Positions 1 through 62,083 of a stretch of 64,000 bases of DNA are shown in pieces. Position 1 is the stretch's first letter; every line of letters starts with the position of its first letter. The notes beneath the pieces were generated by a model. The model searched no databases. It was given only the letters and a program-made list of their open reading frames with translations, and was not told the origin of the DNA. Where the stretch lies: IMG/VR virus record IMGVR_UViG_3300029288_001872, positions 125,633 through 189,632 of that record. The stretch is one strand, 5' to 3'. Both the position numbers and the translations under genes were made by a program. This DNA is from a virus. Its lineage: Duplodnaviria > Caudoviricetes.

Positions 1-12
1 ATTTGGAAAGGG

Positions 13-309
13 TTGAAAGCCTTGTCTCAGTCTACTAAAACTTTGGTTTTGACAGGGACGCAGACTAGAAGAAGCACTTTGGAAAAAGGTGAGGTTGGAC
101 AAGCTGACATGGCAGAGGACATAAGGAAATTGGCTCATGTGGATGCCATGTGGGGTTTGAGCCAGACGCCTGATGAGAAGAGGTGGGGTCTAGCCAGGAT
201 AGGAATGCTGAAACAGAGGCATGACGAATTTGATGTAGTTTCACAGTGTTACATATTGCAACAGTTGAAATGTGGTCAGTTTTGCTTGGATTCTAGACTC
301 AAAAAATAA
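13..309 (+). CDS. C-terminal part of DnaB-like replicative helicase (gene starts before the window)
   Basis: 'LVLTGTQTRR...DMAEDIRKLAHVDAMWGL...LKQRH' resembles SF4 helicase motifs H3/H4. Confidence 0.7.
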   Translation: MKALSQSTKTLVLTGTQTRRSTLEKGEVGQADMAEDIRKLAHVDAMWGLSQTPDEKRWGLARIGMLKQRHDEFDVVSQCYILQQLKCGQFCLDSRLKK

Positions 310-333
310 TTTCAAGAAATTTGAAAATAATTC

Positions 334-361
334 TTGACAAAGGGTTTTGAGGGTCTATAAT
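334..361 (+). promoter_or_regulatory. sigma70-type promoter
   Basis: TTGACA-16nt-TATAAT, member of a recurring promoter family in the window. Confidence 0.65.
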
Positions 362-943
362 ATAGGAAAACTAAGAAGGGGGAGGAAATTTTTGGATACA
401 ACTCATGAAGAAGAATTAAAAATTCTAGGCAAAGAATTGATGGGTTGGACCCTTTTTGGAATTTCTCCTATAACTGGCGTGTTTGGCGCAAGATGGTTAT
501 TTTACCCCTTTGAAGATTATGGCACTAAATTTGAATTTTTTGATGATAAAAATTGTATTGATTTTATAAAATGGAACCCGTTTGAAAACACTATTCAAAC
601 CTTTGGAATAATAGACAAATTAATTGACAATGGGTGGAAAGTTTTTAGCCTTGAATATGACAATTTATATAATGATGGTAAATGGAAGGCTTTATTTTAT
701 AAACTAGGAAACGCAGTAGGTTATGGAGAAACTAGAGAAGAAGCAATTTGTTTTGCTGCTCTTGAAACTTTGGAAACAATTGAAGAAGAATCTTATGTTT
801 TTCAAGGTTATAGATTTTGGAAATGTTGTCACCAAAATATTGCCTTTGGTCATTTTTCTAATTGTCCGATAGTATTGAAAAAGAAATTAGAATTGGAATT
901 AAAAAAGAAATCTAATGTTATAGATAAAGAGGGAAATCAATGA
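347..943 (+). CDS. hypothetical phage protein (true start probably TTG near 392 after GGAGG)
   Basis: ORF track; 'WNPFEN...IIDKL...GETREEAICFAALE' resembles phage ABA-sandwich-like proteins. Confidence 0.5.
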   Translation: MRVYNIGKLRRGRKFLDTTHEEELKILGKELMGWTLFGISPITGVFGARWLFYPFEDYGTKFEFFDDKNCIDFIKWNPFENTIQTFGIIDKLIDNGWKVFSLEYDNLYNDGKWKALFYKLGNAVGYGETREEAICFAALETLETIEEESYVFQGYRFWKCCHQNIAFGHFSNCPIVLKKKLELELKKKSNVIDKEGNQ

Positions 944-1929
944 GAATCTTAAGACATCTTAAAGTCCCAACTGGTGACATTTTGGTTGCCCAAGGTGAAA
1001 AAGACCAATTAGAAATGCTTTCTTTGGGTGATTATGGCAAAGAAGTAAACCTAAAAGCTGATTTCATGGGACTTTCTAGACCTCTTGACCAAGTTTCTCA
1101 TTGCAATCTTCTTCCTTTGACTGAAAAATGGGTAATTACAATATCTACTCAATACGGTTGCTCAATGAATTGTACTTTTTGTGATGTTCCAAAAGTTGGT
1201 CCTGGCAGAAACGCCACATTTAAAGACCTCATACATCAAGTTCTAACTGGTATTAAATTGCATCCAGAAATTACCCATACAAACCGGCTTAATGTCCACT
1301 TTGCTCGTATGGGCGAACCTACTTGGAACCCAAACGTATTAGATGCAACAAAATGGATGAAAGAACATTTGGATGCAGAATATAAAGTTCATCCTGTAGT
1401 TTCTACAATGATGCCAAAGAATAATATTTGGTTAAAAACTTTTATTCACACTTGGATGAGAATCAAAAATCGCTTATATCTTGGCAATGCTGGTTTGCAA
1501 CTCAGTATCAATTCAACTAATGAAAAAGAACGAAATGAAATGTTTTCTGGTAACGCATTGTCTCTTAAAGACATTTCAAAAATTATGGAAGGTATTATTC
1601 CGGCAGGTCGCAAAATCACTCTTAATTTTGCGATTGCTGACTATGAAATAAATCCAGAAATCCTTTTGGAATATTTTGACCCCGACTACTTTATCATCAA
1701 ACTAACTCCGATGCATAAAACAGAGAAAGCACTTCAATTTAACATTAAAACTAATGGTGATTATACGACTTATCATCCATATCAAGAAATTGAAGAAAAA
1801 TTAAAAGTTGTTGGATATGACGTTCTTGTTTTTATCGCTTCTGAATATGAAGATATGGGTAGAATAACTTGTGGTAATGCTATTTTATCTGGGACTCTTC
1901 CAGAATGTCCTTATGAGGAATTAATATGA
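940..1929 (+). CDS. radical SAM protein, RlmN/Cfr-like
   Basis: ISTQYGCSMNCTFC (CX3CX2C), MGEP motif, C-terminal CG. Confidence 0.85.
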   Translation: MRILRHLKVPTGDILVAQGEKDQLEMLSLGDYGKEVNLKADFMGLSRPLDQVSHCNLLPLTEKWVITISTQYGCSMNCTFCDVPKVGPGRNATFKDLIHQVLTGIKLHPEITHTNRLNVHFARMGEPTWNPNVLDATKWMKEHLDAEYKVHPVVSTMMPKNNIWLKTFIHTWMRIKNRLYLGNAGLQLSINSTNEKERNEMFSGNALSLKDISKIMEGIIPAGRKITLNFAIADYEINPEILLEYFDPDYFIIKLTPMHKTEKALQFNIKTNGDYTTYHPYQEIEEKLKVVGYDVLVFIASEYEDMGRITCGNAILSGTLPECPYEELI

Positions 1930-2234
1930 ATTCATGGATAGATGATTTAATTGTGTTTTTAATGGGAGTTTTCGCTTTGCTTTTATGTGTTGCTATCTTT
2001 GCTTTACCAATAGAATATTATTCGGCCAAAAGTAAAATAGCTGAATACAAATCAGTCCAAACTACTTTGGAAAACGCTCGTGAAAATAAAAATGCTAATC
2101 CTTATGAAATCGCCGCTATCCAACAAAAAGTAGTGGATAGCAATAAATGGTTGGCTAATAAACAATATTGGAATGATACTATTTTAGGTTGGTATATTCC
2201 TGACGAAGTTGATGATTTGAAGCCGATAAGGTAA
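1926..2234 (+). CDS. hypothetical membrane-anchored protein
   Basis: N-terminal hydrophobic segment; start overlaps upstream stop. Confidence 0.55.
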   Translation: MNSWIDDLIVFLMGVFALLLCVAIFALPIEYYSAKSKIAEYKSVQTTLENARENKNANPYEIAAIQQKVVDSNKWLANKQYWNDTILGWYIPDEVDDLKPIR

Positions 2235-2468
2235 ATTATGAACATTCTATGTAAAAGTTGTGGTGATCCCATCAACCATCTTTCCCTTTTGTTGAAAGGA
2301 GAAGAAGTTTTTGGCAATGGTTCTGCAACCAATGAAGGAGATTGCCTATCTTGCTACTTCATCAAGAACCCGATAGGAAGCGAACCCGAGTAGTGCAAGG
2401 ATTTGGAAAGATGGGGTTGTCTTGATTTTATGAACTGAAAATTATTTTCAATTTTCTCAACTTTTCTC

Positions 2469-2497
2469 TTGCGCTATGGGTTTTGAAATTCTATAAT
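2469..2497 (+). promoter_or_regulatory. sigma70-type promoter
   Basis: TTGCGC-17nt-TATAAT upstream of ORF 2554. Confidence 0.6.
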
Positions 2498-2553
2498 ATA
2501 GGTAATGAAAGATTGTGGTAGAAGAATAGAATTTAAACTGTAGAGGAGGGATT

Positions 2554-4584
2554 ATGGACTTTAGGATGGTCAAGATAGCCATAGCAAAACAGTTTGAGAA
2601 ACTTCAAGGTTACAATCTGTTTCGGTCAAGGGTTGGTAAGGAAGAAATGTGGCAGACATATCTTTCCAGTTTTCCAAATGGGTCAAATCCCATCTTTCGT
2701 GAGCGAACAGAACATGATTGCAGTTGTTGTCGGCAATTCATTGGCGCGGTTGGGAACATTGTGGCTGTGGTTGATGGAAAATTGGAAAGTATTTGGGATT
2801 GCAATGTACTTGGCGAACCAGATTATCAAACTGTAACTGATGCTATGGCCACCTTGGTCAAATCAAAGCCGATTGAATGTGAATTTTTTAATCCAGAAAG
2901 AATTGCTGGGACGGACAAAAACTTTGAGCAGTTGACCGAAGGAGTTAAGACTTGGGAACATTTTTTTATCAATATCCCCAATAAATTTGTTAAACCAAAA
3001 GTCGCTATTGGTCCTTTACTCTCAGAATCATGTTCGAACCATGATGTTTTCTTGCGAAGCCTTAATGAGATTACCACAGAATCTATTAACATAGTGCTTG
3101 AACTCATAGGCCAAAATTCCCTCTATCGCGGAGAAGAAAACAAGTTTGCAGTGGATTCATTCCGAGTCCTAAAAAAGAACTTTGATAAGATTGAACTTGA
3201 TTCCGATAAGGATATTTTTGTTTGGGATAATCTTAAAGAAACTCCCTTGTCTGTAACCAAAATCCGCAATACTGCTATTGGCACATTGCTCACTGATCTT
3301 TCAGAAGGAGTTGATATTGAAGTTGCAGTGAGATCATTTGAAGCTAAGGTAGCCCCGGCCAATTATAGGCGTCCTACAGCCCTAATAACTAAAGGGATGA
3401 TCGAACAAGCGAAGATGAAATTAGAGGAATTGGGGCTTACCTCAGCTTTGGAACGCCGCTTTGCCTCCCTTGAAGACATTTCTGTAAACGACATTCTATT
3501 TATTGATCGTCAGATAGAAACACAAGTGAATACTGACATCTTTGATGAATTATCTGCGGGGGTTCAACCCAAGAACAGGAAAAATTTTGATAAGGTTGAA
3601 GAAGTTCCGGTAGAAAAATTTATTAAGGATGTTCTCCCTCAAGCTAAATCAATGGAAATCCTATTTGAAAATCACCAAGCAGGAAGTCTTGTAAGTTTGG
3701 TGGCTCCAGTTGACCCAACTTCAAGAGAACTTTTCAAATGGGGCAATAAATTTAGTTGGACGTATAATGGAGAAGTTGCCGATTCTGTCAAAGAACGGGT
3801 GAAAAAAGCTGGTGGAGTTGTAGAAGGAGACCTATGTTGTCGCCTTTCTTGGTTTAACTTTGACGATCTTGACCTTCACATGAAAGAGCCAAGCGGGTAT
3901 GAAATATTTTATGGAAATCGCAATAAGACTTCCTCTTCTGGTGGTCGTTTGGACGTAGACATGAACGCTGGTCGTGGTCAAACCAGAGAGCCGGTTGAGA
4001 ACATCTTTTATCAAACTAAAAATCGGATGAAAGAAGGGGTTTACACTCTCAAAGTCCATAATTATCATAAACGAGAAGTTGATAATGTCGGTTTTGAAGT
4101 AGAAGTAGACATTGAAGGAATAATCAACCGTTTCTCCTATATTCAACCTGTTGCTAATCAAGCCGTAATTTTTGTTGCTGAAATTAAATACACTAAAAAA
4201 GACGGCTTTGAAATTGTCAAATCATTGCCGAAACAAACCCAAGTTGGAAGGGAAATATGGGGAATTAAGACTAATAGTTTTAATCAAGTCCGTGCTATGA
4301 TGTTATCGCCCAATCATTGGAACGGCCATTCCATAGGGAATAAACACTACTTCTTCATATTGGATGGTTGTGTTAATGATGGCCCTGCTAGGGGTTTTTA
4401 TAATGAATTTTTGAAAGAAGAACTGAATGCTCATAGAAAGGTCTTCGAGATTATAGGCTCCAAGACCAGACTTGCCAATAGTGGTGAACAACTGAGTGGG
4501 CTTGGTTTTTCATCAACCAGAAGAGATAGTTTGGTATGTAAGATCAAGGGAAATTTTACTCGCACTATAAAAATCATTTTCTAA
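2554..4584 (+). CDS. conserved large-phage protein with YfaP/DUF2135-like domain
   Basis: 676 aa; HDCSCC motif; 'LSWFNFDDLDLH...GGRLDVDMNAG...PVENIF'. Confidence 0.65.
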   Translation: MDFRMVKIAIAKQFEKLQGYNLFRSRVGKEEMWQTYLSSFPNGSNPIFRERTEHDCSCCRQFIGAVGNIVAVVDGKLESIWDCNVLGEPDYQTVTDAMATLVKSKPIECEFFNPERIAGTDKNFEQLTEGVKTWEHFFINIPNKFVKPKVAIGPLLSESCSNHDVFLRSLNEITTESINIVLELIGQNSLYRGEENKFAVDSFRVLKKNFDKIELDSDKDIFVWDNLKETPLSVTKIRNTAIGTLLTDLSEGVDIEVAVRSFEAKVAPANYRRPTALITKGMIEQAKMKLEELGLTSALERRFASLEDISVNDILFIDRQIETQVNTDIFDELSAGVQPKNRKNFDKVEEVPVEKFIKDVLPQAKSMEILFENHQAGSLVSLVAPVDPTSRELFKWGNKFSWTYNGEVADSVKERVKKAGGVVEGDLCCRLSWFNFDDLDLHMKEPSGYEIFYGNRNKTSSSGGRLDVDMNAGRGQTREPVENIFYQTKNRMKEGVYTLKVHNYHKREVDNVGFEVEVDIEGIINRFSYIQPVANQAVIFVAEIKYTKKDGFEIVKSLPKQTQVGREIWGIKTNSFNQVRAMMLSPNHWNGHSIGNKHYFFILDGCVNDGPARGFYNEFLKEELNAHRKVFEIIGSKTRLANSGEQLSGLGFSSTRRDSLVCKIKGNFTRTIKIIF

Positions 4585-4602
4585 TCAAAAGGAGGAATTG
4601 CT

Positions 4603-5013
4603 ATGACTGAAATTAACAATTTGTTTGCAGTGGCTTCACGTTTGAAATTTCGTTTTGAAACTCCCAGAGGTTCTTTGACAGTTGAAGACCTTTGGAACTT
4701 GCCTTTAACCAGCAGAACCGGCAAAGTTAATCTTGATGATATTGCTCGCAGCCTCTATCGAGATGTAAAAGATATGGGAGACGAGGTATCTTTTGTTGCT
4801 CCGATTCAAAAAACTGATGAAATCCCTGGACTCAAACTCGAATTGGTTAAGTATATCATTTCAGTTCTTGTTTCTGAGCGCGATACAGCAGCACAAGAGG
4901 CGGTCAGAAGAGAAAAGAAACAGCGGCTCTTGGAACTCATCGTCAGGAAGGAAGATGAAACATTGGCTGGCAAGTCTTTGGATGAACTGAGAGCCATGGT
5001 AGAACAACTGTAA
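4603..5013 (+). CDS. conserved hypothetical phage protein
   Basis: GGAGG RBS; 'ASRLKFRFETPRGSLTVEDLWNLPL'. Confidence 0.65.
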   Translation: MTEINNLFAVASRLKFRFETPRGSLTVEDLWNLPLTSRTGKVNLDDIARSLYRDVKDMGDEVSFVAPIQKTDEIPGLKLELVKYIISVLVSERDTAAQEAVRREKKQRLLELIVRKEDETLAGKSLDELRAMVEQL

Positions 5014-5019
5014 CCGTGT

Positions 5020-5096
5020 CGGCCCTTGGCGCAGTCTGGTAGCGCACTTGCCTTGGGCGCAAGGGGTCCTTGGTTCAAATCCAAGAGGGCCGACCA
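5020..5096 (+). tRNA. tRNA-Pro(TGG)
   Basis: Cloverleaf: CGGCCCT/AGGGCCG acceptor, CTTGC-CTTGGGC-GCAAG anticodon arm, TTCAAAT T-loop, encoded CCA. Confidence 0.95.
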
Positions 5097-5099
5097 TGT

Positions 5100-5455
5100 T
5101 TTGGGTATGGGAAGATTAAACCATCTTGCGAGCAGGTGGGTGGGGTGCAGCCTGAGAAAGAAATAAGGAGTCGCTGACCGTCTTTGAAGTTCTTTCTGAA
5201 TAGTGCCTCTTATATGTTCGGTGCCACTTGTTGGCTTGATATGGGGTAATGCCCAGCCGGACATGACCACAGAAGGGACGCCTTCTGTTTGTAGCCCCAG
5301 GTCTCACCTACCTGTCTGAATAAGAGAATAGGTGGCTCTGGTGTGAGCGTACTGCCTCTGGACAAAATCAGAGGTAGCTTGGCAGAGGCAAGTGTCAGCA
5401 CTAGTCGCAAAGCGTCTGGCAGAGTCGTTAAACGTCTCGAAGCGGCTTGTTTCTG
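5100..5455 (+). ncRNA. candidate structured ncRNA of unknown family
   Basis: GC-enriched tract after tRNA-Pro with no convincing ORF; long-range helix 5133-5144/5303-5314 and hairpins 5269-5288 and 5352-5377. Confidence 0.5.
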
Positions 5456-5624
5456 TTAAGTTTACATTTTTTAGAGAGGAAGTGAGTATGAAAATAATTG
5501 ATGTTTCTGATAACTTACAAAAATTGAATTTACACAATACTTTTTTGTCCATAAAACTTTTGAAACTACTTGCTATAAAGAATAATTACATTTTTATTAC
5601 AGGGAATCAAAAGAAGAAAAACAA

Positions 5625-6134
5625 ATGAATCTTATTTCTAGACAAGACCTTAAAAAAGCAATTAAAGAAGTAAATGAAAAATTCAAGATAAAACAAAGTC
5701 TTGCTGTTTCAACAGAAGATTTATCTAGTTTCTTGCGCTCTGTTTATATCAAACAAAAAGAAGCGATGCCTAAATTTGCAAGACAAGTGGCAGAATTGAT
5801 ACCGGAAGAAGAAACTTGTCCTGAATTTGGTTATGGATACAATCCTAAAGAATGCCAAGGATGCGATGAAGGACAAGAATGTAGGAGATTATCAGACCTG
5901 GCAGCAAAAGGTGATTATGATCCAGTTAAAAGATTTGTGGATAAATATGGAAACGTCCAACCTGTGAATGTCATGTTTGATATTATTTGCAGAGAACCAG
6001 ATATAGACAAGAATGAATTTGAAAAGAGAGTGAAAGCAACTGGAATAGACTATAGTTATCATGGTTTTGATTTGGCATGGAGAATGACGCAAAAGGTTGT
6101 CGCTGGGTTGAGAAGGCACAAATGGATGAAATAA
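5625..6134 (+). CDS. hypothetical protein
   Basis: ORF track; Cys cluster CPEFG..ECQGCD..C. Confidence 0.55.
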   Translation: MNLISRQDLKKAIKEVNEKFKIKQSLAVSTEDLSSFLRSVYIKQKEAMPKFARQVAELIPEEETCPEFGYGYNPKECQGCDEGQECRRLSDLAAKGDYDPVKRFVDKYGNVQPVNVMFDIICREPDIDKNEFEKRVKATGIDYSYHGFDLAWRMTQKVVAGLRRHKWMK

Positions 6135-6511
6135 TGGAAGAATTAATAATTACACAAAAATATCTTCAAGATAATCCAAATTTTATCTTCGTCTTCGGGG
6201 ATAACCATTTGAGGGAAGGAAAGGCTGGCGCAGCAAAATTAAGAGACCTTCCTAATTCCTATGGATTTATCACAAAGAAGTTCCCAAACAATGACATCAA
6301 AAGTTTTTACAAACCAGAAGAATATAAACTCGTCTTTGAAAAAGAATTAGACAAATTGATATTTCAGATTGTAATGCACCAAGATAAGACCTTTCTAATT
6401 AGCAAATTAGGCAGCGGCCTTGCAAACCGCTTTCATATTTGGGAAAAGGTTATCGAGCCAGAATTAAAAACACTGACTAGATATAAGAATGTAAAACTTT
6501 TATGGATGTAA
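6077..6511 (+). CDS. conserved phage protein (FVFGDN family; start probably near 6122-6134)
   Basis: 'IFVFGDNHLREGKAGAAKLR...LGSGLA'. Confidence 0.6.
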   Translation: MENDAKGCRWVEKAQMDEIMEELIITQKYLQDNPNFIFVFGDNHLREGKAGAAKLRDLPNSYGFITKKFPNNDIKSFYKPEEYKLVFEKELDKLIFQIVMHQDKTFLISKLGSGLANRFHIWEKVIEPELKTLTRYKNVKLLWM

Positions 6512-6514
6512 TAA

Positions 6515-6886
6515 ATGAGAAACAATAGTTTAAAAGATGAAAGTTTAAAAGATAAAATAACAAAAGACTTTCCAGAAATTTATTCAGACTGTTTCGATTT
6601 TTCTATTGGAGAAGGATGGTACAAAATTGTTTATAATTTAACAGAATCAATAAGTAAGATTGACAAAAATGTAAAAGTTTTACAAGTGAAGGAAAAACTA
6701 GCCCTATTGAGATTCTACATCTCAATTCCAAACGAAGAAACAGTTGATGAAATTTATGTGTTAATTAGGAAAGCGATGGAAGAATCAAGTAAAACTTGTG
6801 AATTTTGTGGCACCAAAAAGAATGTTACTAAGGAAGGTGAATTTTGGGTAAAAACCTTGTGTAATAAATGTAGAGAAAATTTATGA
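6515..6886 (+). CDS. conserved hypothetical phage protein
   Basis: 'GEGWY...QVKEKLALLRFY...CEFCG...TLCNKC'. Confidence 0.6.
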   Translation: MRNNSLKDESLKDKITKDFPEIYSDCFDFSIGEGWYKIVYNLTESISKIDKNVKVLQVKEKLALLRFYISIPNEETVDEIYVLIRKAMEESSKTCEFCGTKKNVTKEGEFWVKTLCNKCRENL

Positions 6887-7459
6887 AAACTATCTACATT
6901 GTTTTTGGTAGTGAAGGAAGTTATGATGACTATCATGAATGGGATATTAAAGCATTTATTTCTAAAGACAAAGCAGAACAATTTGTTGAATTGTTGAAAG
7001 AAGAAGCAAAAAGAGTAATTGAATATAATAATACTATTGGGAAAAAATATCCTTTTCCAAATAATGATGGAACACTAAAAGACAGGAAAGAAAAGTTATC
7101 AGAATATCAAAGGATAAATGAATTAAGAAGAAGCGAAATAACCGAAAACAAGTATGATTCAATGACATTTGAAGATAATCCTGAATATAACATAAAAGAA
7201 CTTGAATTGGATGAAACACTACCTGTAGAAATAGTAGAATAAAATAAACACTGGAGAATTGAAAGAAAATGACTTTAGACTGTGAATTTAACCCAGAAAA
7301 GAATCGCCCTTTGACCTTAAAGGAATATAGGGATGGTTTGTCTCATGCCAAGGCCGTGTATATGCTAGGTGGAGAAGAACAACTTGCAGTGTGTGAACAC
7401 TGTGCTGAGATTCCTTTGTTGGTGAAGAAGTATAAGATAAAGAAGATGATAGAGGGATA

Positions 7460-8773
7460 ATGGAAGTTTCTTACATTATAGAAAGACTTTGTGGTTGTGG
7501 CTACCAAGTCTATATTGCAGGAGGAAGTGTAAGAGACGCCTTGGCTGGTCTACCATCCAAAGATGAAGATATAGTTACTAATGCCACACCAGAAGAAATT
7601 GAAAAGATGTTTTCTGGCCACGATATAAAATTTGTTGGCAAACAATTTCTTGTAACTCTTGTGGACGGCATAGAAGTAGCCACATATCGCAAGGATGATT
7701 ATGGCGGTTTATCTGATAAGAATTGTGAAGTATCCTTTGTTGAAACTTTGGAAGAAGATTTAGGTAGGCGTGATTTCACTATCAATTCCCTTGCGAGGTG
7801 TGAATTTACAGGAAAAATTCTTGACCCTTATAACGGCCAAGAAGATTTGAAGAAAAGAATAATTCGTTTTGTGAATAATCCAAAAGACAGAATTTATGAA
7901 GACCCAAATAGAATAATCAGAGCTTGCAGATTTCTTGCTAAGATTGATGGTAGTTTTGAATGCAAAACTTTTGAAGCATTATGTGAACATTCTCATTATG
8001 TTCGAGATCATGTTGCTAAGGAAAGAATTAGACTTGAAATATTAAAGGCATTGGAATTACCAAAACCATCTTTGTTTTTCCAAGCATTGTTTGAAATTAA
8101 TGCTTTGCAATATATTTTTCCAAGTATGATTCCATGTGCTGACCACCATCACGGCAAACATCATAGAGAAGATATTTTTACTCATTTAATGATTGTTGGT
8201 GATTCTATTTCTTCTAAATATCCTTTATTAAGACTATCAGGATATTTACATGATGTTGGCAAACCAGAATCATATTCAGATGATGGTAAATTTATAAATC
8301 ATGAAAACGTTGGTGCTAATATAGTTGTAAAAGAACTACAAGACTTGAGATTTTCTATGGATGAGGTTTCTAAAGTATCAAATTTGATAAAATGCCATAT
8401 GTATTCAATTAAAGATATTTCACCAAAATCAATTAGAAAGTTATTGGTTTTTCTCAATGAATTAGGTTTAGATTATTCAGAGTTTTTGAGGTTGAGAATT
8501 GCAGATAGAATTGGTAATTTAGCTAAACCAAATTTTACTTTAAAAGAAATCAAAGAAGTTCTGTTTAAGTTTAAAAATGTTATAGATGAAAAGACTCCGT
8601 TTAATGTTAAAAATCTAATGATAAATGGCGATGATGTCATGAATCTTCTTAATCTTGTTCCTGGAAAAAAAGTAGGAGAAATCTTAAAAATGTTGTTTGA
8701 ATATGTTCTTGAAAATGGACCTGAGTATAATACTAGAGAAAATCTACTTGAGCAATTAAGAGAGATGGAATAA
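7460..8773 (+). CDS. cca: CCA-adding tRNA nucleotidyltransferase with HD domain
   Basis: GGSVRD..DED, DLGRRDFTINS, EDPNRIIRACRF, LHDVGK. Confidence 0.9.
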   Translation: MEVSYIIERLCGCGYQVYIAGGSVRDALAGLPSKDEDIVTNATPEEIEKMFSGHDIKFVGKQFLVTLVDGIEVATYRKDDYGGLSDKNCEVSFVETLEEDLGRRDFTINSLARCEFTGKILDPYNGQEDLKKRIIRFVNNPKDRIYEDPNRIIRACRFLAKIDGSFECKTFEALCEHSHYVRDHVAKERIRLEILKALELPKPSLFFQALFEINALQYIFPSMIPCADHHHGKHHREDIFTHLMIVGDSISSKYPLLRLSGYLHDVGKPESYSDDGKFINHENVGANIVVKELQDLRFSMDEVSKVSNLIKCHMYSIKDISPKSIRKLLVFLNELGLDYSEFLRLRIADRIGNLAKPNFTLKEIKEVLFKFKNVIDEKTPFNVKNLMINGDDVMNLLNLVPGKKVGEILKMLFEYVLENGPEYNTRENLLEQLREME

Positions 8774-9654
8774 TGGCAAGCATTGTAACAAACCTCGCTA
8801 AAAGAGGATTAATCAAACCTCCTTCGTATGCAATTGACACCCAGTATGAAATTATTACTGGTAGTGTTTCATATGGTGTGTCTTCTGGTTCTTCTGACCT
8901 TGATGTTGTTGGATTTTGCATTCCTTCCAAAGAAATTGTATTCCCCCATCTTGCAGGAATAATTCAAGGTTTTGGTTCTCACGGAGAAAAGTTCAATCAG
9001 TTTCAACAACATCACATAGAAGACAAAGAAGGAAGAAAAGAGTATGATTTAACAATTTATAACATTGTAAAATTTTTTCAATTGTGTATGGAAAATAATC
9101 CAAATATGGTGGATTCGCTTTTCGTAAGTCAGAGATGTGTTTTACATATTACCAAAATTGGGCAAATGGTGAGGGACAATAGAAAAGAATTTTTACATAA
9201 AGGTTGCTTTTACAAATTTCGCGGATATTCTTACAGCCAATTGCACAAAGCGAGAATCAAACAACCAACAGGGAAAAGAAAAGAAATTGTAGATAAATTA
9301 GGATTTGACCCAAAATTTCTTTATCATTGTGTAAGATTGTTGGATGAAACAGAACAAATACTCATTGAAGGAGATTTAGACCTTGAAAGAAACAAAGAAT
9401 ATTTAAAAGAAATTAGAAGAGGAGAGGTATCATTAGAAAGAGTTGAAGAATATTTTCAAACAAGAGAAAAATATCTTGAAGAAGTTTATCAAAAATCAAC
9501 CTTGCCTCATTCTCCAGATGAACAAAAAATTAAGAACTTGCTCCTTTCTTGCTTTGAAGAATTTTATGGAAATCTTGATGGTTGTATAAAAACGCTTGGA
9601 ACTACAGAACAGATTATCAACGATTTGAAATTAATTGTAAATAAATATAGTTAA
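8773..9654 (+). CDS. Pol-beta superfamily nucleotidyltransferase (RlaP/YcgL-like)
   Basis: GSVSYG..SDLDVVG, NNPN, FDPKFLYHCVRLL. Confidence 0.8.
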   Translation: MASIVTNLAKRGLIKPPSYAIDTQYEIITGSVSYGVSSGSSDLDVVGFCIPSKEIVFPHLAGIIQGFGSHGEKFNQFQQHHIEDKEGRKEYDLTIYNIVKFFQLCMENNPNMVDSLFVSQRCVLHITKIGQMVRDNRKEFLHKGCFYKFRGYSYSQLHKARIKQPTGKRKEIVDKLGFDPKFLYHCVRLLDETEQILIEGDLDLERNKEYLKEIRRGEVSLERVEEYFQTREKYLEEVYQKSTLPHSPDEQKIKNLLLSCFEEFYGNLDGCIKTLGTTEQIINDLKLIVNKYS

Positions 9655-10211: not shown

Positions 10212-11192
10212 ATGAATAAAGTTAATGTTATCAAGGTATTAGACAGTATTTCGCCTATTTTATCTGAGGATTATGACATTATCCACTTCAATCAAGATTC
10301 CATTTATGCCGAAAGCAACATGATAGGAATTTCTTGCAATTTGGATTTTGGCTTCAAGGCTTCAATTAGAGGTATTGAATTAATAAAATTACTTAAAAAG
10401 ATGTCTGGCGATGAAGTAGAGTTTAAACTCACAGACAAAACTTTGTCAGTCAAAGGTGGCGGTTTATCAGCCAAGTTTAAGAAATATGATAAAGAAAAAA
10501 CACCACCAGATTTCACTGAATTAGAATTTAAAGAAGTACCAGACAATTTTATTGAAGCAATAACTGCTTGTTTACCTTCTGTATCAGATAAAGATATTCA
10601 AGGAATTTTAACTGGTTTGCATATTGACAATGCTTTAATGTATGGATGCAATAATGTTTCTGTGACTGAATATGAAATACCAGATATGGATGTAACATTT
10701 ACACTTCCGAAACAAACTGCTTCTTTGCTGACTAAATTTAATCCAAAATACTATTATATTACTGATAACAAGGCCATATTTGCCAATGAAGATAAAACTT
10801 CATATTTGTGGTCTGTGCTTATGGCTGGTGCTTATCCAGTTGAGAATATGGTTAAATTGTTGTCTAAAGAAGGTGATATTTTCTCTTTACCAGAAGAAAT
10901 AGGTAAAAGAGCAGATATTGTAAGTCTGTTTGCCTATGATGCTCAAGACGGCAGTTCTTTTATTGAAGTAGATATACAACCAGATAAGATTGTATTAGGC
11001 GGTAACAAGTCTTTTGGGAATTTGGAAGATGTGATGGAATATAAGTCGGAAGGAAGTGTGAAGTTTCATGTGAATAGTTTGTCTTTGAATCGAGCTTTGT
11101 TGATAGATAACAAATTTACATATTGTGGAAATTTCATTGTTTTTGAAAACAGCCAAGTCCGGCATCTGGTTTGTCTAGTTGACCACGCTTGA
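10212..11192 (+). CDS. dnaN: DNA polymerase III beta-like sliding clamp
   Basis: 326 aa; 'VSDKDIQGILTGLHI', 'LMAGAYP' match beta-clamp signatures; DnaE and DnaX nearby. Confidence 0.7.
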   Translation: MNKVNVIKVLDSISPILSEDYDIIHFNQDSIYAESNMIGISCNLDFGFKASIRGIELIKLLKKMSGDEVEFKLTDKTLSVKGGGLSAKFKKYDKEKTPPDFTELEFKEVPDNFIEAITACLPSVSDKDIQGILTGLHIDNALMYGCNNVSVTEYEIPDMDVTFTLPKQTASLLTKFNPKYYYITDNKAIFANEDKTSYLWSVLMAGAYPVENMVKLLSKEGDIFSLPEEIGKRADIVSLFAYDAQDGSSFIEVDIQPDKIVLGGNKSFGNLEDVMEYKSEGSVKFHVNSLSLNRALLIDNKFTYCGNFIVFENSQVRHLVCLVDHA

Positions 11193-11212: not shown

Positions 11213-11328
11213 GGTATGGTCGGGTCAGGTTTGGTATGGTTGGGTCTGGTGTGGTGAGGTCAGGTAGGGTTAGGTAAGGTGTGGTAAGGTGAGGGTGTAA
11301 GTCTAGAAAATTAGGCTTACACAGTTTT
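11213..11328 (+). ncRNA. guide array A: 16 x GGT-NN plus terminal hairpin
   Basis: Perfect 5-nt periodicity 11213-11292; stem 11295-11305/11312-11322 followed by AGTTTT. Confidence 0.8.
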
Positions 11329-30071: not shown

Positions 30072-30740
30072 GGCAGGCGTGACGACACAAGTTCAGATAG
30101 GGAGAGATGCGTTGGGGTGAGTCTTGGACTGTTAAGGCAGGTAAGACATGGCAAGTAAGACATGGCAAGTTGCAACCAGATATGTTATGGCGGTTTAAGT
30201 TATGGTTCGGCAGGCTATGCTAGTCGGGCTGAGGCTGGTTGAGACCCGTTAGGTTATGGCAGGTGTGACATGACAAGTGATATACGATTAGTTGAGTTAG
30301 GTTTTGGTTGATCGTGTTATGGTTTGGCAGGCCAAGAGTGATGAGATATGTCTTGGTAGGTTAAATTATGGCGGGGAGTATCATGACACGGCAGGTATGA
30401 CGAGACGCCACGAGAGAAGACAAGGAGTGTTGCTGTGCGACTTAACAAGGCAGGCAATTCCTCCTCTTGGCTAGTCGGGGCTTGGCAGGCGTGTTGAGAC
30501 TTTACAAGTTGAGTGTAATGAGTTAAGTTCTGTCACGATAGGGTTAGGCAAAGCAGGTACGACGACACAAGTTATGGTAAGTTCTGGGTGTTACAATGTG
30601 TTGGGTTCAGGCAAGGGTGGCAGGCTATGCTAGTCAGGTTGAGATTAGTTGAGATGATTTCTGGCGAGTTAAGACATAGCAGGTAGGATGAGTTACGTCC
30701 TGATAAGGTTTGTTCTGTCCTGATTTGTCAAGGCAGGCAA
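30072..30740 (+). repeat. guide array U: about 11 units delimited by GGCAGG/AGCAGG, each about 9-13 [triplet+NN] pentamers
   Basis: Delimiters at 30072, 30136, 30209, 30258, 30326, 30390, 30449, 30484, 30552, 30619, 30678, 30732; spacing often 4+5n. Confidence 0.8.
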
Positions 30741-30769: not shown

Positions 30770-31258
30770 ATGATGGTAAAGAAACATTTGGATGAGTTGA
30801 ACCAAATTATGGAAGAAAATGGTGGATTACTTCGAGCGGAAGATGTTGTTGAATTCGCCAAAAATCCTAAGACAACTTTGCATAATGCGTTTGAGTGGGA
30901 TGATAAGAAGGCTTCTTATAAATGGAGGTTATTTCAAGCCAATCAACTCATCAGAGTTGCAGTTACTATTCTCCCAAGAGAAAACCAAGAACCCATTATG
31001 GTTCGGCCTTTCGTCAGTTTGAAAGAAGACAGATATAATGGTGGAGGTTATCGTTCCACACTGGAAGTAATGGAAAGTCCAATTCTCAGAAAAACGCTAT
31101 TGGATGAAGCTAAAGAGGATATGCAAACTTTCATGGATAAATACAAATCTTTGGAAGAACTTGCGGAAGTCTTTGTTGCAATGGAACCTTTAATTGTTCC
31201 ACCACCCACTAAAGGACAAAGAAAGTATAAAAGGGTTGAACAACAATTATCAGCTTGA
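30770..31258 (+). CDS. conserved phage protein embedded between the two arrays (candidate accessory subunit)
   Basis: RBS AGGAG; 'GGLLRAEDVVEFAKNPKTTLHNAFEWDDKKA..RL.QA.QLIR'. Confidence 0.7.
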   Translation: MMVKKHLDELNQIMEENGGLLRAEDVVEFAKNPKTTLHNAFEWDDKKASYKWRLFQANQLIRVAVTILPRENQEPIMVRPFVSLKEDRYNGGGYRSTLEVMESPILRKTLLDEAKEDMQTFMDKYKSLEELAEVFVAMEPLIVPPPTKGQRKYKRVEQQLSA

Positions 31259-31268
31259 TGTTTTATAT

Positions 31269-31632
31269 GGCAGGTATGGCACGTTTCGATTTGGTAGGAC
31301 ATGGTGTGTTTGGTCGCATTCTGGTACTTCAAGGCAGGTGTAACAAAGACGAGTCGAGATGAGTTCGGTTGTGGTGAGTTTTAATATGGAAAGATACGTT
31401 GAGGTTCGATACGGCAGGTAAGACAAGATAAGACAAGGAGTGGTGCTACTTGCCCCGATTTGTTAGGTTGAGGAGTTATACGGCAGGTCAGACGTGTCCG
31501 GTTGAGACAAGACATGGTGGGATATGACACGGTTTGTCGGGTTGAGATAAGCAAGGCATGGCAGGCGCGGCAGGTTGAGGCATGGCGCAATGTGACGTGG
31601 TGCGCTGGGGCAAGACAAGAAGAGACATAGCA
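31269..31632 (+). repeat. guide array V: 5 GGCAGG-delimited units; V2-V4 decode to recA
   Basis: Delimiters at 31269, 31333, 31413, 31482, 31560, end AGCA 31629. Confidence 0.85.
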
Positions 31633-31655
31633 ATTTTATTTTGAAGGAGAAATAA

Positions 31656-56647: not shown

Positions 56648-57349
56648 ATGTCTAAAGACAGCCTTGGCGATAGAATGAAACATAATTATGAAGATAGATA
56701 TCGTCATTATTTGACAAGAAGAGTTCCTATCATAATTAGATTAGATGGTAAAGGATTTACCAAATTAACTAAAAAATGTGACAAACCTTTTGATATGAAT
56801 TTTAATTCTTGTATGGTTTATACGATGATAGAACTATGTCAAGAATTGCAAGGAGCAAAATGCGCTTACACCCAAAGTGATGAAATAAGTATTTTACTTA
56901 CAGATTTTGATAATTTAACTACGGAAGCATGGTTTGACTATAATCTTCAAAAAATCGTTTCTGTTTCTGCCGCAATTGCTTCAACTTATTTTACTAAAAT
57001 TTATATTGATAGAGAAAATTTAACAACTGCTTGTTTTGATTCACGAACATTTAACATTCCTCAAGAAGAAGTGACAAATTATTTTGTTTGGAGACAAAAA
57101 GATTGGATCAGGAATTCTGTTTCGATGTTGGCAAGGGCGCATTTTTCTCATAAAGAATGTATGAATAAAAAACAAAACCAACTACATGATATGTTACATA
57201 ATATTGGAATAAATTGGGCTGAACTTGAACCTAAATGGAAAAATGGAACTTTCATTCATAAAGTTGATAGAAATTGGATTGTCAAAGATGATGTTATCTT
57301 TACAGAAAAACGAGAATTAATTGATAATTTGTTGATTGTAAATGAATAA
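56648..57349 (+). CDS. tRNA(His) guanylyltransferase, Thg1-like
   Basis: IRLDGKGF, YTQSDEIS, FDSR, WRQKD. Confidence 0.92.
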   Translation: MSKDSLGDRMKHNYEDRYRHYLTRRVPIIIRLDGKGFTKLTKKCDKPFDMNFNSCMVYTMIELCQELQGAKCAYTQSDEISILLTDFDNLTTEAWFDYNLQKIVSVSAAIASTYFTKIYIDRENLTTACFDSRTFNIPQEEVTNYFVWRQKDWIRNSVSMLARAHFSHKECMNKKQNQLHDMLHNIGINWAELEPKWKNGTFIHKVDRNWIVKDDVIFTEKRELIDNLLIVNE

Positions 57350-58452: not shown

Positions 58453-59391
58453 ATGAACATACTGGTGACTGGCGGGGCCGGCTTTCTCGGAAGTGTTCTT
58501 ATTGGAAAATTATTACAAGAAGGGCATGTAATTACAGTAATAGATAATCTGATGTATAGCCAATCGTCATTGTTACAATATTGTAACAATCTGAATTTCA
58601 AATTTGTGTGGGGAGATGTAAATGAAAATGAATTTGTTGATGATTACATAACTGATTGTGATATTTTTATTCCGTTGGCCAGTATTGTTGGCGCTCCAGC
58701 TTGTTCAAGATTTCCTCAATCTGGATTAGTTGATAAATCAATAACAAGATATAAATTACGAAACAAAATGGTAATTTTTCCCATGAGCAATTCTGGCTAT
58801 GGAACACAAAGCGGCGAATTATATTGTACAGAAGAAACGCCATTAACTCCAGTTTCTAGATATGGTTTGCAAAAAGTTGAAGTAGAAAATTATTTATTTA
58901 AACACCATCCCAATACTATTAGTTTACGTCTTGCCACTGTATTTGGTGTCAGTCCTCGTATGAGAACAGACTTGCTGGTGAATTTTACTGTCAACGAATG
59001 CGTCACTAAAAAAGTAATTTTATTGCCAGAAGATGTTATGAACAACAGTCGCAATTTTGTTCATGTTCTGGATGTGGTAAATTGTTTTGTTCATTGCATA
59101 AATAATTTTGACAATATGAAAGGACAATCATACAACTTAGGGAATGATAATTTAAATATGACACTAGGAGAAATGACATATCAAATTGCTGAAAATTTAG
59201 GAAGTGAAGTAGTTCTTTCTCATCATTATAAAGACCCAGATAAAAGAAATTATATTGTTTCAAATGAGAAATTAAGAAAGGCAGGATTTGAAGCAAAGAG
59301 GACAATTTTAGAAGAATTGCCAAACTTAATTGAAGTGTGTCGTATGATCCAAATGATGAATTATGGGAGAAATCAATTTAAAAATGCTTAA
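58453..59391 (+). CDS. NAD-dependent epimerase/dehydratase
   Basis: TGGAGFLG, YGLQK, RLATVFG. Confidence 0.9.
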   Translation: MNILVTGGAGFLGSVLIGKLLQEGHVITVIDNLMYSQSSLLQYCNNLNFKFVWGDVNENEFVDDYITDCDIFIPLASIVGAPACSRFPQSGLVDKSITRYKLRNKMVIFPMSNSGYGTQSGELYCTEETPLTPVSRYGLQKVEVENYLFKHHPNTISLRLATVFGVSPRMRTDLLVNFTVNECVTKKVILLPEDVMNNSRNFVHVLDVVNCFVHCINNFDNMKGQSYNLGNDNLNMTLGEMTYQIAENLGSEVVLSHHYKDPDKRNYIVSNEKLRKAGFEAKRTILEELPNLIEVCRMIQMMNYGRNQFKNA

Positions 59392-59394
59392 TGT

Positions 59395-59542
59395 GGTAAG
59401 GTGCGGTTGGGTGAGGTATGGTATGGTCAGGTATGGTCTGGTAAGGTTAGGTGGGGTCGTGTAGGGTGAGGTTTGGTAAGGTATGGTAAGGGTTTGGTTG
59501 TCATTTTCCAATTAAATCTTATTGGAAAATGACAACAATTTT
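59395..59542 (+). ncRNA. guide array B: 19 x GGT-NN plus 16-bp hairpin
   Basis: Pentamers 59395-59489; stem 59497-59512/59521-59536 then AATTTT. Confidence 0.8.
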
Positions 59543-59573
59543 GAATATAAAAACTGAATTTAGGAATGCTTAA

Positions 59574-60260
59574 ATGCAAATACCAGATACATTAATTCTT
59601 TGTGGCGGTCTTGGTGAAAGACTAAGACCTCTTACCGACAATCATCAAAAATGTATGTTGCCAGTACAAGGAAGGCCATTTCTTGAATACACAGTGGATA
59701 AAATTAAACAATTGGAATTAAAACCACCTATTTTCTGTTGTGGTCATAAATCAGATGAAATAATCAATCATTTTGGAAACGGATATAAATTTTCATATCG
59801 CGACAATATAAATACTGGAGCAAGGATTAAAGAAGCATTATCTTTAATTCACTCAGAACATTCTATCGTCTTTAATGGAGATTCATATTGCAACATAGAC
59901 TATAATTATTTTTGGTACACATATAAGGAATTTATCAATTTAGGAAAAGATGTTTGCAAAATATTGGTTCACAAAAAGAACTCTTTATTAGCTTCATATA
60001 TTTCCAGTTCTGTATATGATTATTATGGTGCTGGAATTTATTTCTTCAAAAAGAATTATATAGAAAGTTTAGAGAAGAATGACAACCTTTCTATAGAAGA
60101 TGATATTTTACCAAATTGTAAAAAGATTTATAATTGTGCCATTCCAGAAGAATTTTTTGTAATTGATATTGGTACTAAAGAAAATTATGAGATGGTAAAT
60201 AGCAAGGAGAATAAATATGGACAATTTTTTACCGACGCAAATAAATGGGTTGTTGAGTAA
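59574..60260 (+). CDS. sugar-phosphate nucleotidyltransferase (HddC-like)
   Basis: LCGGLGERLRPLT..K, NGDS, DIGT. Confidence 0.85.
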   Translation: MQIPDTLILCGGLGERLRPLTDNHQKCMLPVQGRPFLEYTVDKIKQLELKPPIFCCGHKSDEIINHFGNGYKFSYRDNINTGARIKEALSLIHSEHSIVFNGDSYCNIDYNYFWYTYKEFINLGKDVCKILVHKKNSLLASYISSSVYDYYGAGIYFFKKNYIESLEKNDNLSIEDDILPNCKKIYNCAIPEEFFVIDIGTKENYEMVNSKENKYGQFFTDANKWVVE

Positions 60261-60720
60261 ACCATTAAAAGTAATTCCAGACTTTAGGGGAGAATTTCAA
60301 AAAATTAGTTTAAATAGCCCTTTTGTAGAACAAGACATGGCTGTCTCGTATAATAATGTTCTTCGCGGGTTTCATTATGTAACTGAAGGACGACGAATAT
60401 TCTCTCTTGTTCATGGTAGATTATATTGTGTATTTTTGGATATTCAAGAGGAGTCTGATACTAAAAATGACTGGTTTGGTATAACTCTTGATAGTAGTAA
60501 TAGACAAAGATTTTTGATTCCATCATATGTGGCTTGTTCTTATCTTGTTCTTTCTCCTGTTGCTATAGTCCATTATGAATTAGAATTTGAGTATGATGAA
60601 TCCAAGCAGAAGACAATAAGATTTGATGATGAAAGATTCAATGTATATTTCCCAGGCGATCATAAAGGCTATATACTTAGCGAAAGAGATTATTTTATAG
60701 ACGAATCATTAATTAGATAA
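60217..60720 (+). CDS. rmlC: dTDP-4-dehydrorhamnose 3,5-epimerase family
   Basis: DFRGEF, VLRGFH, ILSERD. Confidence 0.8.
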   Translation: MDNFLPTQINGLLSKPLKVIPDFRGEFQKISLNSPFVEQDMAVSYNNVLRGFHYVTEGRRIFSLVHGRLYCVFLDIQEESDTKNDWFGITLDSSNRQRFLIPSYVACSYLVLSPVAIVHYELEFEYDESKQKTIRFDDERFNVYFPGDHKGYILSERDYFIDESLIR

Positions 60721-60737
60721 ATTTTAAACATGTTTGT

Positions 60738-60881
60738 GGTACGGTGAGGTGGGGTAAGGTAGGGTATGGTTTGGTACTGTCCAGTATGGTTTGGTGGGGT
60801 AAGGTTTGGTAAGGTTGGGTGTGGTAAGGTGAGGGTTGCTTCTTTTGTTTTAACAATTTGATAGAAAGAAGCAACAGTTTT
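60738..60881 (+). ncRNA. guide array C: 19 x (G)GT-NN plus hairpin
   Basis: Pentamers 60738-60832; stem GTTGCTTCTTT/AAAGAAGCAAC then AGTTTT. Confidence 0.8.
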
Positions 60882-60915
60882 AACAAATAAAGTTCACAAT
60901 AAGGTAAAAAATCAA

Positions 60916-61896
60916 GTGATTATCGCAAGGTCGCCCTATCGAATTTCATTCCTAGGTGGAAATTCAGATCAAGCTGATTGGTTTAATCTGCATGGCGGTT
61001 GTGTTCTATCTACTACGATAGATAAATATTGCTATATAATGGTTAAGCCAATTACAAACTTTTTTGGGTATAATTATAAAATTGTTTATCGAAAAATAGA
61101 AAATGTTAATACTTTGGATGAAATAGAACATTATACAGCAAGAGAATGTATAAGATATTCTGGAATTAAGACGGGACTAGAAGTGCATCACTCTGGAGAC
61201 CTACCTGCCCGGAGCGGGATGGCTTCTTCAAGTGCTTATGCCACTGCGTTATTATTGGCTCTTTATACTTTAGATGGCAAATATGTAGATAAAGGCCAAT
61301 TAGCAAAAGATGCTATCTATATAGAAAGAAATGTATTGCAAGAAGTAGGCGGAGTGCAAGACCAACTGGCATGTTCTTTCGGGGGATTTAATAAAATAGA
61401 ATTTCTTGATAATAATTTATATCATACTTTTCCAATTCCTATAAGTAGAGAACGATCAGAATTATTTCAAAATCACCTATTGCTATTTTATTTAGGCACG
61501 ACTAGAGCCGCATCAGAAATTTCCAAAACTTTTGTTCCAAACATAGATAGTAAGAGAAGACAACTTAGAGTTTCAAAAGAATTGGTTGAAGAAGGAATTA
61601 ACATACTGTGTTCAAATTCTGATATCAGATTATTTGGCGATTTGTTGCATGAATACTGGATGTTGAAACGTTCATTAAGTGATAAAGTTAGTGATGAAAA
61701 TATAGATAATTATTATGAATTGGCAATGAAAAACGAAGCCATAGGCGGGAAGGTCTTGGGAGCAGGGGGCGGAGGTTTTCTATTATTATTTGCAGAACCA
61801 GATAAACACAATAAAATTATAGAAGGATTTAATGATTTACTTCATGTTCCATTTAAGTTTGAAAAAACAGGTTCAACAATTATCTTTAAAGGTTGA
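60916..61896 (+). CDS. GHMP sugar kinase (HddA heptose-7-phosphate kinase-like)
   Basis: PYRISFLGG, PARSGMASSS, GGVQDQ, GGKVLGAGGGG. Confidence 0.9.
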   Translation: MIIARSPYRISFLGGNSDQADWFNLHGGCVLSTTIDKYCYIMVKPITNFFGYNYKIVYRKIENVNTLDEIEHYTARECIRYSGIKTGLEVHHSGDLPARSGMASSSAYATALLLALYTLDGKYVDKGQLAKDAIYIERNVLQEVGGVQDQLACSFGGFNKIEFLDNNLYHTFPIPISRERSELFQNHLLLFYLGTTRAASEISKTFVPNIDSKRRQLRVSKELVEEGINILCSNSDIRLFGDLLHEYWMLKRSLSDKVSDENIDNYYELAMKNEAIGGKVLGAGGGGFLLLFAEPDKHNKIIEGFNDLLHVPFKFEKTGSTIIFKG

Positions 61897-61951
61897 TAAA
61901 TGCTTAGAGAATTTGAAATTCAAAACCTTTTGCACCAAAAGGATTAAATGA

Positions 61952-62068
61952 GGTCCGGTTCGGTACGGTATGGTTAGGTATGGTCAGGTCCGGTTTGGTA
62001 AGGTTTGGTCGGGTAGGGTAAGGTGAGGGTACTAATCCTACTACACTCGGTAGGATTAGTACAATTTT
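61952..62068 (+). ncRNA. guide array D: 15 x GGT-NN plus hairpin
   Basis: Pentamers 61952-62026; stem 62029-62042/62049-62062 then AATTTT. Confidence 0.8.
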
Positions 62069-62083
62069 TAAGGATTTAAAAAT

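Follow-up and report, generated by a model that had tools for sequence, protein, structure and literature searches.

A solo VIPR guide-RNA gene paired with a recoded epimerase gene end in a phage nucleotide-sugar operon: a candidate RNA-guided mobile unit

The closest described relatives of the locus analysed here are VIPR systems, which combine a RAMP protein, Vipr, and vap accessory genes with vrRNAs made of GGY/NN repeats that read their targets with a 1-nt skip (2026 preprint, bioRxiv 10.64898/2026.04.26.720920); structures are given in bioRxiv 10.64898/2026.04.26.720927. Solo or orphan vrRNAs are known from SUSP1-family phages and F5 satellites (bioRxiv 10.64898/2026.10.15.759431). Another point of reference is provided by the free-standing homing endonucleases SegE, SegF, SegG and MobE of T4, which carry out intronless homing, with co-conversion from target to insertion, and bring about marker exclusion; defective elements of this kind can home in trans (PMC2988022).

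The window, a 64,000-nt stretch forming the end part of a 189.6-kb virus record, contains an array of pentamers (array B) behind the first gene of a nucleotide-sugar operon, an epimerase gene of the family that the array reads (Table 1). Judged from its sequence, array B is a solo vrRNA, that is, a stand-alone guide-RNA gene of the CRISPR-like VIPR system, and it is a vrRNA by each feature examined; the code itself is already published. The pentamers (59395-59494) begin 3 nt past the epimerase stop (59391), as originally predicted, and GGT opens 18 of the 20 units. The intervening 3 nt make up one further YNNGG unit, the GT of which spells Val, the residue found there in five array-free alleles, the allele of this phage having Ile. 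The hairpin proper spans 59497-59536, and its architecture recurs with different sequence at other solo guides; the assessment of a structured tail refers to hairpin folding (z -4.9).

Within the available portions of the VIPR preprint (bioRxiv 10.64898/2026.04.26.720920), array B resembles the described systems in repeat grammar, structured 3′ tail, wobble-base skip and a self-match under 80%, and in sharing its phage with vipr and vap genes and staggered arrays. It differs in its position, within an operon, next to its own target family and some 30 kb away from vipr, in having 17-20 units rather than 9-16 and a simple hairpin as its tail, and in apparent targets that are allelic genes of sister phages rather than satellites or prophage switches. 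With the solo vrRNAs of bioRxiv 10.64898/2026.10.15.759431, as far as the accessible text of that preprint goes, it shares a stand-alone arrangement, a putative action in trans against related phages, wobble alignment and a lower self-match. Those RNAs, unlike array B, were left by vipr-vap deletion or are satellite-borne, and their targets are vipr, other vrRNAs, satellites or REP decoys.

Table 1. Features of the window (positions in the window; scores are bases matched under a one-base skip)
Feature	Position	Strand	Evidence or remark
NAD-dependent sugar epimerase gene, 312 aa	58453..59391	+	Pfam Epimerase, E 1.7e-24
Recoded epimerase 3′ end apparently travelling with the guide (left part of putative mobile unit)	59303..59391	+	identity drop; match to G001
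Own mismatched ("escape") copy of the array B target, 26/34	59332..59382	+	skip-1 match
Array B vrRNA repeat tract, 20 GGT-NN units, about 17-18 informative	59392..59494	+	fits GGY/NN definition
Array B vrRNA 3′ tail: 16-pair hairpin, then T-rich run	59497..59542	+	-22.3 kcal/mol, z -4.9; terminator-like
Leftover original epimerase 3′ end, 22 nt including stop	59552..59573	+	22/22 to L002 and L003 gene ends
Nucleotidyltransferase gene	59574..60260	+	abuts epimerase stop in array-free sisters
Second solo vrRNA, reads upstream dTDP-sugar epimerase at 60382	60738..60842	+	own 24/36, array-free alleles 27-32/36
Third solo vrRNA, reads minus strand of downstream glycosyltransferase, 62160-62199	61952..62031	+	own 17/26, L003 22/26, L004 23/26
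Solo vrRNA, no target found	63104..63178	+	different guide at same site in G001
Solo vrRNA, reads minus strand of downstream glycosyltransferase, 63517-63569	63207..63311	+	own 23/36, L004 26/36
Solo vrRNA after sliding-clamp gene (phrog_947)	11213..11297	+	own 18/24, G001 allele 21/24
vipr gene, 219 aa, RAMP fold, glycine loop	29360..30019	+	alignment to SUSP1 Vipr; structure model
Staggered degenerate vrRNA array of vipr locus	30072..30740	+	second one at 31269-31640
vap accessory gene, 162 aa, winged-helix-like	30770..31258	+	between arrays; best Z about 6 to winged-helix proteins

When one base is skipped per dinucleotide, the leading 17 dinucleotides of array B agree with 59332-59382 at 26 of 34 bases and 10 of 17 dinucleotides, reproducing the counts of the original prediction, which had taken the array for a skip-one-encoded variant of the C-terminus of the upstream epimerase. 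The alignment is in frame, the bases read being codon positions 1 and 2, and it is the top skip-1 match of the array in the 189.6-kb genome (runner-up, 23/34). The best of 1000 shuffled guides scores 25 across the genome, short of the observed 26 (local p=0.001), so that the match is significant in the permutation test that had been proposed for it, and skips of 0, 2 and 3 yield no match (p=0.14-0.89). The skip-one code that the array was said to replicate holds, being already the published VIPR rule. A synonymous Arg swap (CG/AG) is present as described, the CGN codon read by the guide occurring in several array-free alleles; peptide decoding is ambiguous per dinucleotide (AT = Ile or Met). 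Rfam returned nothing for array B, and a promoter scan there found no excess over shuffles, so no promoter of its own is claimed. Reading array B as a CRISPR array was rejected on its period-5 repeat, the null match at skip 0 and the lack of an Rfam hit.

Comparison with homologous epimerase genes of related phages, also foreseen in the original prediction, locates real alleles nearer to the encoded variant than the gene beside it. Array B is absent from L002-L006, L010 and L160, which have empty sites, and in L002-L006 and L010 the epimerase stop abuts the nucleotidyltransferase start. The guide scores 31 of 34 against L148, 30 against L004 and L005, 29 against L002 and 28 against L003, compared with 26 for the own allele (shuffles, p<=0.001); the more distant array-free alleles L006 and L160 score 27 and 23. 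The five closest empty alleles (82-91%) lie above the target cut-off of the discovery paper, at least 80% under a 1-nt skip on the wobble base, and the own site (76%) lies below it, only 2-5 bases short of those five. Differences between the own allele and L002 fall on read and unread positions at 7:4 in the target versus 4:16 in control codons (Fisher p=0.02), with a similar enrichment in two further alleles and a non-significant one in L004, the alleles not being independent of one another. The search for array B targets gave none that was perfect, the best match being 31/34; an exact search of viral contigs for the central 10 target units returned 0, and protein scans of viral contigs, one with the epimerase and one with the clamp, brought up only G001, a sister phage of 188 kb.

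Identity to four array-free alleles is 57-68% in the 59293-59352 bin versus 82-97% just before it, and the drop coincides with the start of the array B target. Since the stretch behind the hairpin matches the gene ends of L002 and L003 at all 22 positions and the epimerase's own coding end at these positions at only 18, the 182-nt insertion landed inside the gene end and brought a replacement with it, leaving the old 22-nt end downstream, an arrangement that the original prediction did not include. That remnant contains an AGGA Shine-Dalgarno-like motif for the nucleotidyltransferase gene, which would account for its retention. The insertion has no sense-strand ORF and is therefore not a homing endonuclease gene. 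The unit as a whole (59303-59573) is present in G001 with 269 of 271 positions identical (99.3%), whereas flanks of equal length reach 88.2% and 90.4% and the first 580 nt of the epimerase gene 74%; a scan of metagenomes for the junction at the gene end retrieved G001 and nothing else. Guide and mismatched gene end together have the look of a single mobile unit directed against close relatives.

This anatomy recalls the T4 free-standing elements, which are likewise intergenic, patchy and often promoterless, and which are aimed at the conserved gene next to their site in relatives, over distances of as much as hundreds of bases (PMC2988022). Array B, too, is present or absent at an intergenic site among close relatives, and its putative target lies in the neighbouring gene of element-free relatives, the own allele being altered at the sequence level. 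Unlike the T4 elements, the unit carries no endonuclease gene; its specificity would be RNA-borne, with cutting and biased inheritance as putative properties. Homing-endonuclease-type genes do occur within the same operon in sisters (a NUMOD3 gene at L003:11783-12709 and an HNH_3 gene at L004:3919-4458), the former occupying the gap that holds guide 60738 in this phage. Cleave-and-rescue synthetic gene drives link a guide against a gene to a recoded, resistant copy of that gene. The array B unit differs from these in being natural, in residing in a phage, in using a noncontiguous code and in having its effector elsewhere. Term searches of the available text of bioRxiv 10.64898/2026.10.15.759431 find no description of a recoded neighbour gene or a displaced gene end (the word "allele" is absent), and the VIPR preprints return neither a cassette of guide and recoded neighbour nor the word "homing"; as far as such searches show, the anatomy has not been described in them, solo guides against relatives' vipr genes being the nearest published case.

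Distant phages carry independent guides at the same gene end. In L159, the epimerase of which is 53% identical, a different GGT guide lies past the epimerase stop, with 16 nt of the old gene end kept behind its hairpin, and reads a site 288 nt upstream. It matches its own allele at 19/26, the empty sister L160 at 23/26 and the allele of the present phage at 22/26, and it fits the peptide of a homologue, P0016, exactly (13/13). At L158:1832-1921 a non-canonical NGY-NN vrRNA-like array follows the epimerase stop, the old gene end lying on its far side, and its first 12 units, a length chosen after the fact, score 22/24 against L148 and 18/24 against its own gene. Because the L158 and L159 targets are about 290-345 nt from the right junction, the idea that this junction marks a cut site was dropped. 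The P0009 locus has a 130-nt gap between epimerase and nucleotidyltransferase genes (10957-11087), comparable in length to a guide cassette.

This genome contains nine strict-GGT solo guides, array B among them, dispersed through the spaces between its genes. In a uniform test (first 12 units; 600 nt), seven of the nine reach p<=0.053 against a neighbouring gene (Fisher 1e-6 when array B is left out), and other skips are null. In six of them a sister allele outscores the own allele (20-24/24 versus 16-19/24), one match being perfect at 24/24, and in five genes a tract of divergence starts at the target and reaches the guide. Traces of displaced ends recur as well, with a short leftover gene end at 60899-60909 beside guide 60738..60842 and a leftover original gene start at 61900-61910 beside guide 61952..62031; G001 lacks both guides. 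At the clamp site the two phages hold different guides with related tails, each of which fits the other's allele, the guide of G001 matching the clamp gene of this phage over its first 9 units without mismatch (18/18). The primase guide departs from the pattern, fitting the empty allele of G001 worse than its own (14 versus 19 of 24); at its site a further 18/20 match 1.2 kb downstream, present in G001 too, competes with the adjacent primase match.

The guides at 63104 and genome position 12072 match nothing in their neighbours or in vipr loci. The latter (genome 12072-12151) has a counterpart at the corresponding site in G001 (G001:C1:128190-128264), a guide that is related and has the same tail yet differs from it; no target was found for either. 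A solo guide on the minus strand of G001 (G001:C1:167541-167630) lies 25 nt before a small gene that it matches at 20/24, the empty site in this phage scoring 21/24. A strict polarity rule, with the tail end of the target facing the cassette, was set aside: it holds for seven solo guides here only and is broken by that minus-strand guide and by the recA guide at 31482. Among 139 arrays of other viruses, six have a local skip-1 match at p<=0.02, the control skips giving 0 and 0; the six include two solo guides from a record without vipr, together with vipr cassettes that have HNH or DUF559-like genes and in which the final guide reads the gene alongside. G001, G006 and G007 have vipr cassettes that combine DUF559 or HNH nuclease genes with guides reading a flanking gene. 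The record G005 (105 kb), in which no vipr is detectable, has three solo guides directly past stop codons (L149:569-643, 1244-1323 and 6863-6932), two of which match the upstream gene.

The vipr gene in the window is the only copy in the genome by HMM search. Its product aligns with SUSP1 Vipr at the thumb Arg and the G-loop, and its structure model (pLDDT 88) returns in Foldseek only Cmr/Csm/Cas7 RAMPs (E 1e-4 to 2e-3); a PDB sequence search with Vipr gave none. Gly occupies the position of SUSP1 Trp178, the residue that stacks on the second G, and the sequence Gly-Glu-Gly-Arg, in place of the Gly-Asp-aromatic-Arg of the SUSP1 and G001 Viprs, parallels the relaxed repeat consensus of this locus. 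In Vap no nuclease motif was seen, Foldseek found nothing at E<=0.001, and no sequence similarity to SUSP1 vap1 was detected; no DUF559 homologue was found in the genome, and no nuclease was recognised in its VIPR locus. Most of its degenerate array units have no target in this phage or in G001, and the unit at 31482 reads recA alleles, matching that of G001 at 23/28, a phage in which the whole vipr cassette upstream of recA is missing. G001 instead has, after recA (G001:C1:82587-83700; L012:6761-7827), an inserted guide, a DUF559 nuclease gene, a second guide and a vipr, and the first of these guides fits the recA of this phage better than its own (20 versus 16 of 24). In all, G001 carries three unrelated vipr genes at three sites, none of them present in this phage. 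In L157 (2083-3900) the recA site used in this phage is occupied by a sister vipr-vap cassette, which has mostly different guides and a vipr call of only 158 aa.

The sequence pattern is plain: the guide fits array-free alleles better than its own, the unit took the place of the gene end, the old end now lying downstream, the unit is nearly unchanged in two otherwise diverged phages, and the design recurs at this gene end in two distant phages and also at further genes. The reading that probably accounts for this pattern is that a Vipr-loaded array B guide binds the rival allele in co-infection and thereby biases inheritance toward the recoded end and guide as a block. Array B would be co-transcribed with the sugar operon and loaded on Vipr, either the phage's own or that of a co-infecting phage, and the loaded guide would then bind the epimerase allele of the rival. 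DNA so bound, or damaged by a nuclease Vap supplied in trans or by a replication or transcription roadblock, could be lost or repaired from the cassette-bearing genome, and the stretch from target to guide would be copied or selected as a block. The outcome would be an RNA-programmed marker exclusion, with the guide as a non-autonomous element comparable to a free-standing homing endonuclease. Because the resistant copy would make up in trans for a silenced rival copy, tight linkage would pay best if the effect acts on DNA in cis. Several observations weigh against parts of this scheme. The VIPRs tested so far silence without cutting, and the Vap here is winged-helix-like; the cognate arrays of the resident Vipr are degenerate, its Gly replaces the SUSP1 Trp and the guide is strict GGT, which makes loading on the phage's own protein less than certain; array B has no perfect target among the alleles found and its own site scores little below the empty ones, the distant empty alleles no better or worse than marginally above it; the primase guide and the two targetless guides depart from the rule; the leftover end is also accounted for by the start signals of the next gene; and islands of identity can be common to phage mosaics without drive.

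The most serious competitor is plain VIPR competition without drive, in which the guide silences the sugar operon of relatives to the benefit of the whole phage, binding near the epimerase end being polar on downstream genes. It is an unlikely account on balance, yet it would explain a good part of what is observed: silencing is the sole activity shown for VIPR in the available text of the preprints, solo vrRNAs against relatives with a lower self-match are already published there, and the nuclease-free locus of this phage is in keeping with it. Selection for linkage likewise predicts tracts running from target to guide, since recombinants that separate the guide from the resistant allele would silence themselves. 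Against it stand the pooling of gene products that would be expected in a co-infected cell, and the patchiness, near-identical islands in diverged phages and repeated, independent invasion of a single gene end, which are the traces of selfish elements.

Far less probable is the idea that the matches record how guides are born, vrRNAs being templated from neighbouring DNA and then drifting, so that the match reflects origin and not function. That 7 of the 9 solo guides adjoin a matching gene suits this idea, as does the absence of any explanation for the origin of vrRNAs in the accessible parts of the VIPR preprints, but guides fit the alleles of other phages better, once perfectly and at the clamp gene reciprocally, differences concentrate at read positions, and the leftover ancestral end mismatches the guide at two units. 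Slightly more improbable still is self-regulation, a dampening of the phage's own operon by a partly matched guide. The own site does retain 26/34, or 19/24 over the first 12 units, yet it ranks below the five closest empty alleles, and the published VIPR systems, as far as the available text describes them, have no self-match above 80%. A chance match of a simple GT-rich repeat can practically be dismissed: dinucleotides and genome are both AT-rich, but 0 of 1000 genome-wide shuffles reached the observed score, other skips are null and orthologues match better, so this explanation is already refuted.

Extending the preferred reading, in which the guide biases inheritance in co-infection, to solo vrRNA cassettes at large is more tentative, a proposal of slightly less than even probability. 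Such cassettes may be natural RNA-guided phage gene drives, minimal non-autonomous homing elements of about 180-270 nt that consist of a guide plus a recoded gene end and that borrow Vipr, and perhaps a DUF559 or HNH Vap, in trans, convert rival housekeeping alleles in co-infection, are re-aimed at fixed sites and drive allelic turnover of core genes. If so, the role of VIPR would reach past the silencing of satellites and prophages to an allele-specific bias of inheritance among sister phages, with homing programmed by RNA in place of protein. The wobble-base skip would find an explanation in that escape requires amino-acid changes, as seen here, and so would the sharply bounded divergent ends of phage core genes and the source of lone guides. 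Natural pairs, comprising the guide, its own allele and rivals at 23-31 of 34 together with the reciprocal clamp guides, make the mismatch tolerance of VIPR and its discrimination of self from non-self testable.

The start and end of the contig overlap by about 125 nt, so the sugar cluster, together with a further guide (genome 1116-1200), continues across the end. Over window positions 58453-64000 and genome positions 1-9500 this long nucleotide-sugar cluster comprises epimerases, a nucleotidyltransferase, a GHMP kinase and several glycosyltransferases, and sister versions include B12 radical-SAM and transketolase-like genes. The GHMP kinase of L004 (6541-7520) is called in two pieces, perhaps through a frameshift or an assembly error. 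Upstream of the cluster, a Thg1 tRNA-His guanylyltransferase gene is located at window positions 56648-57349.
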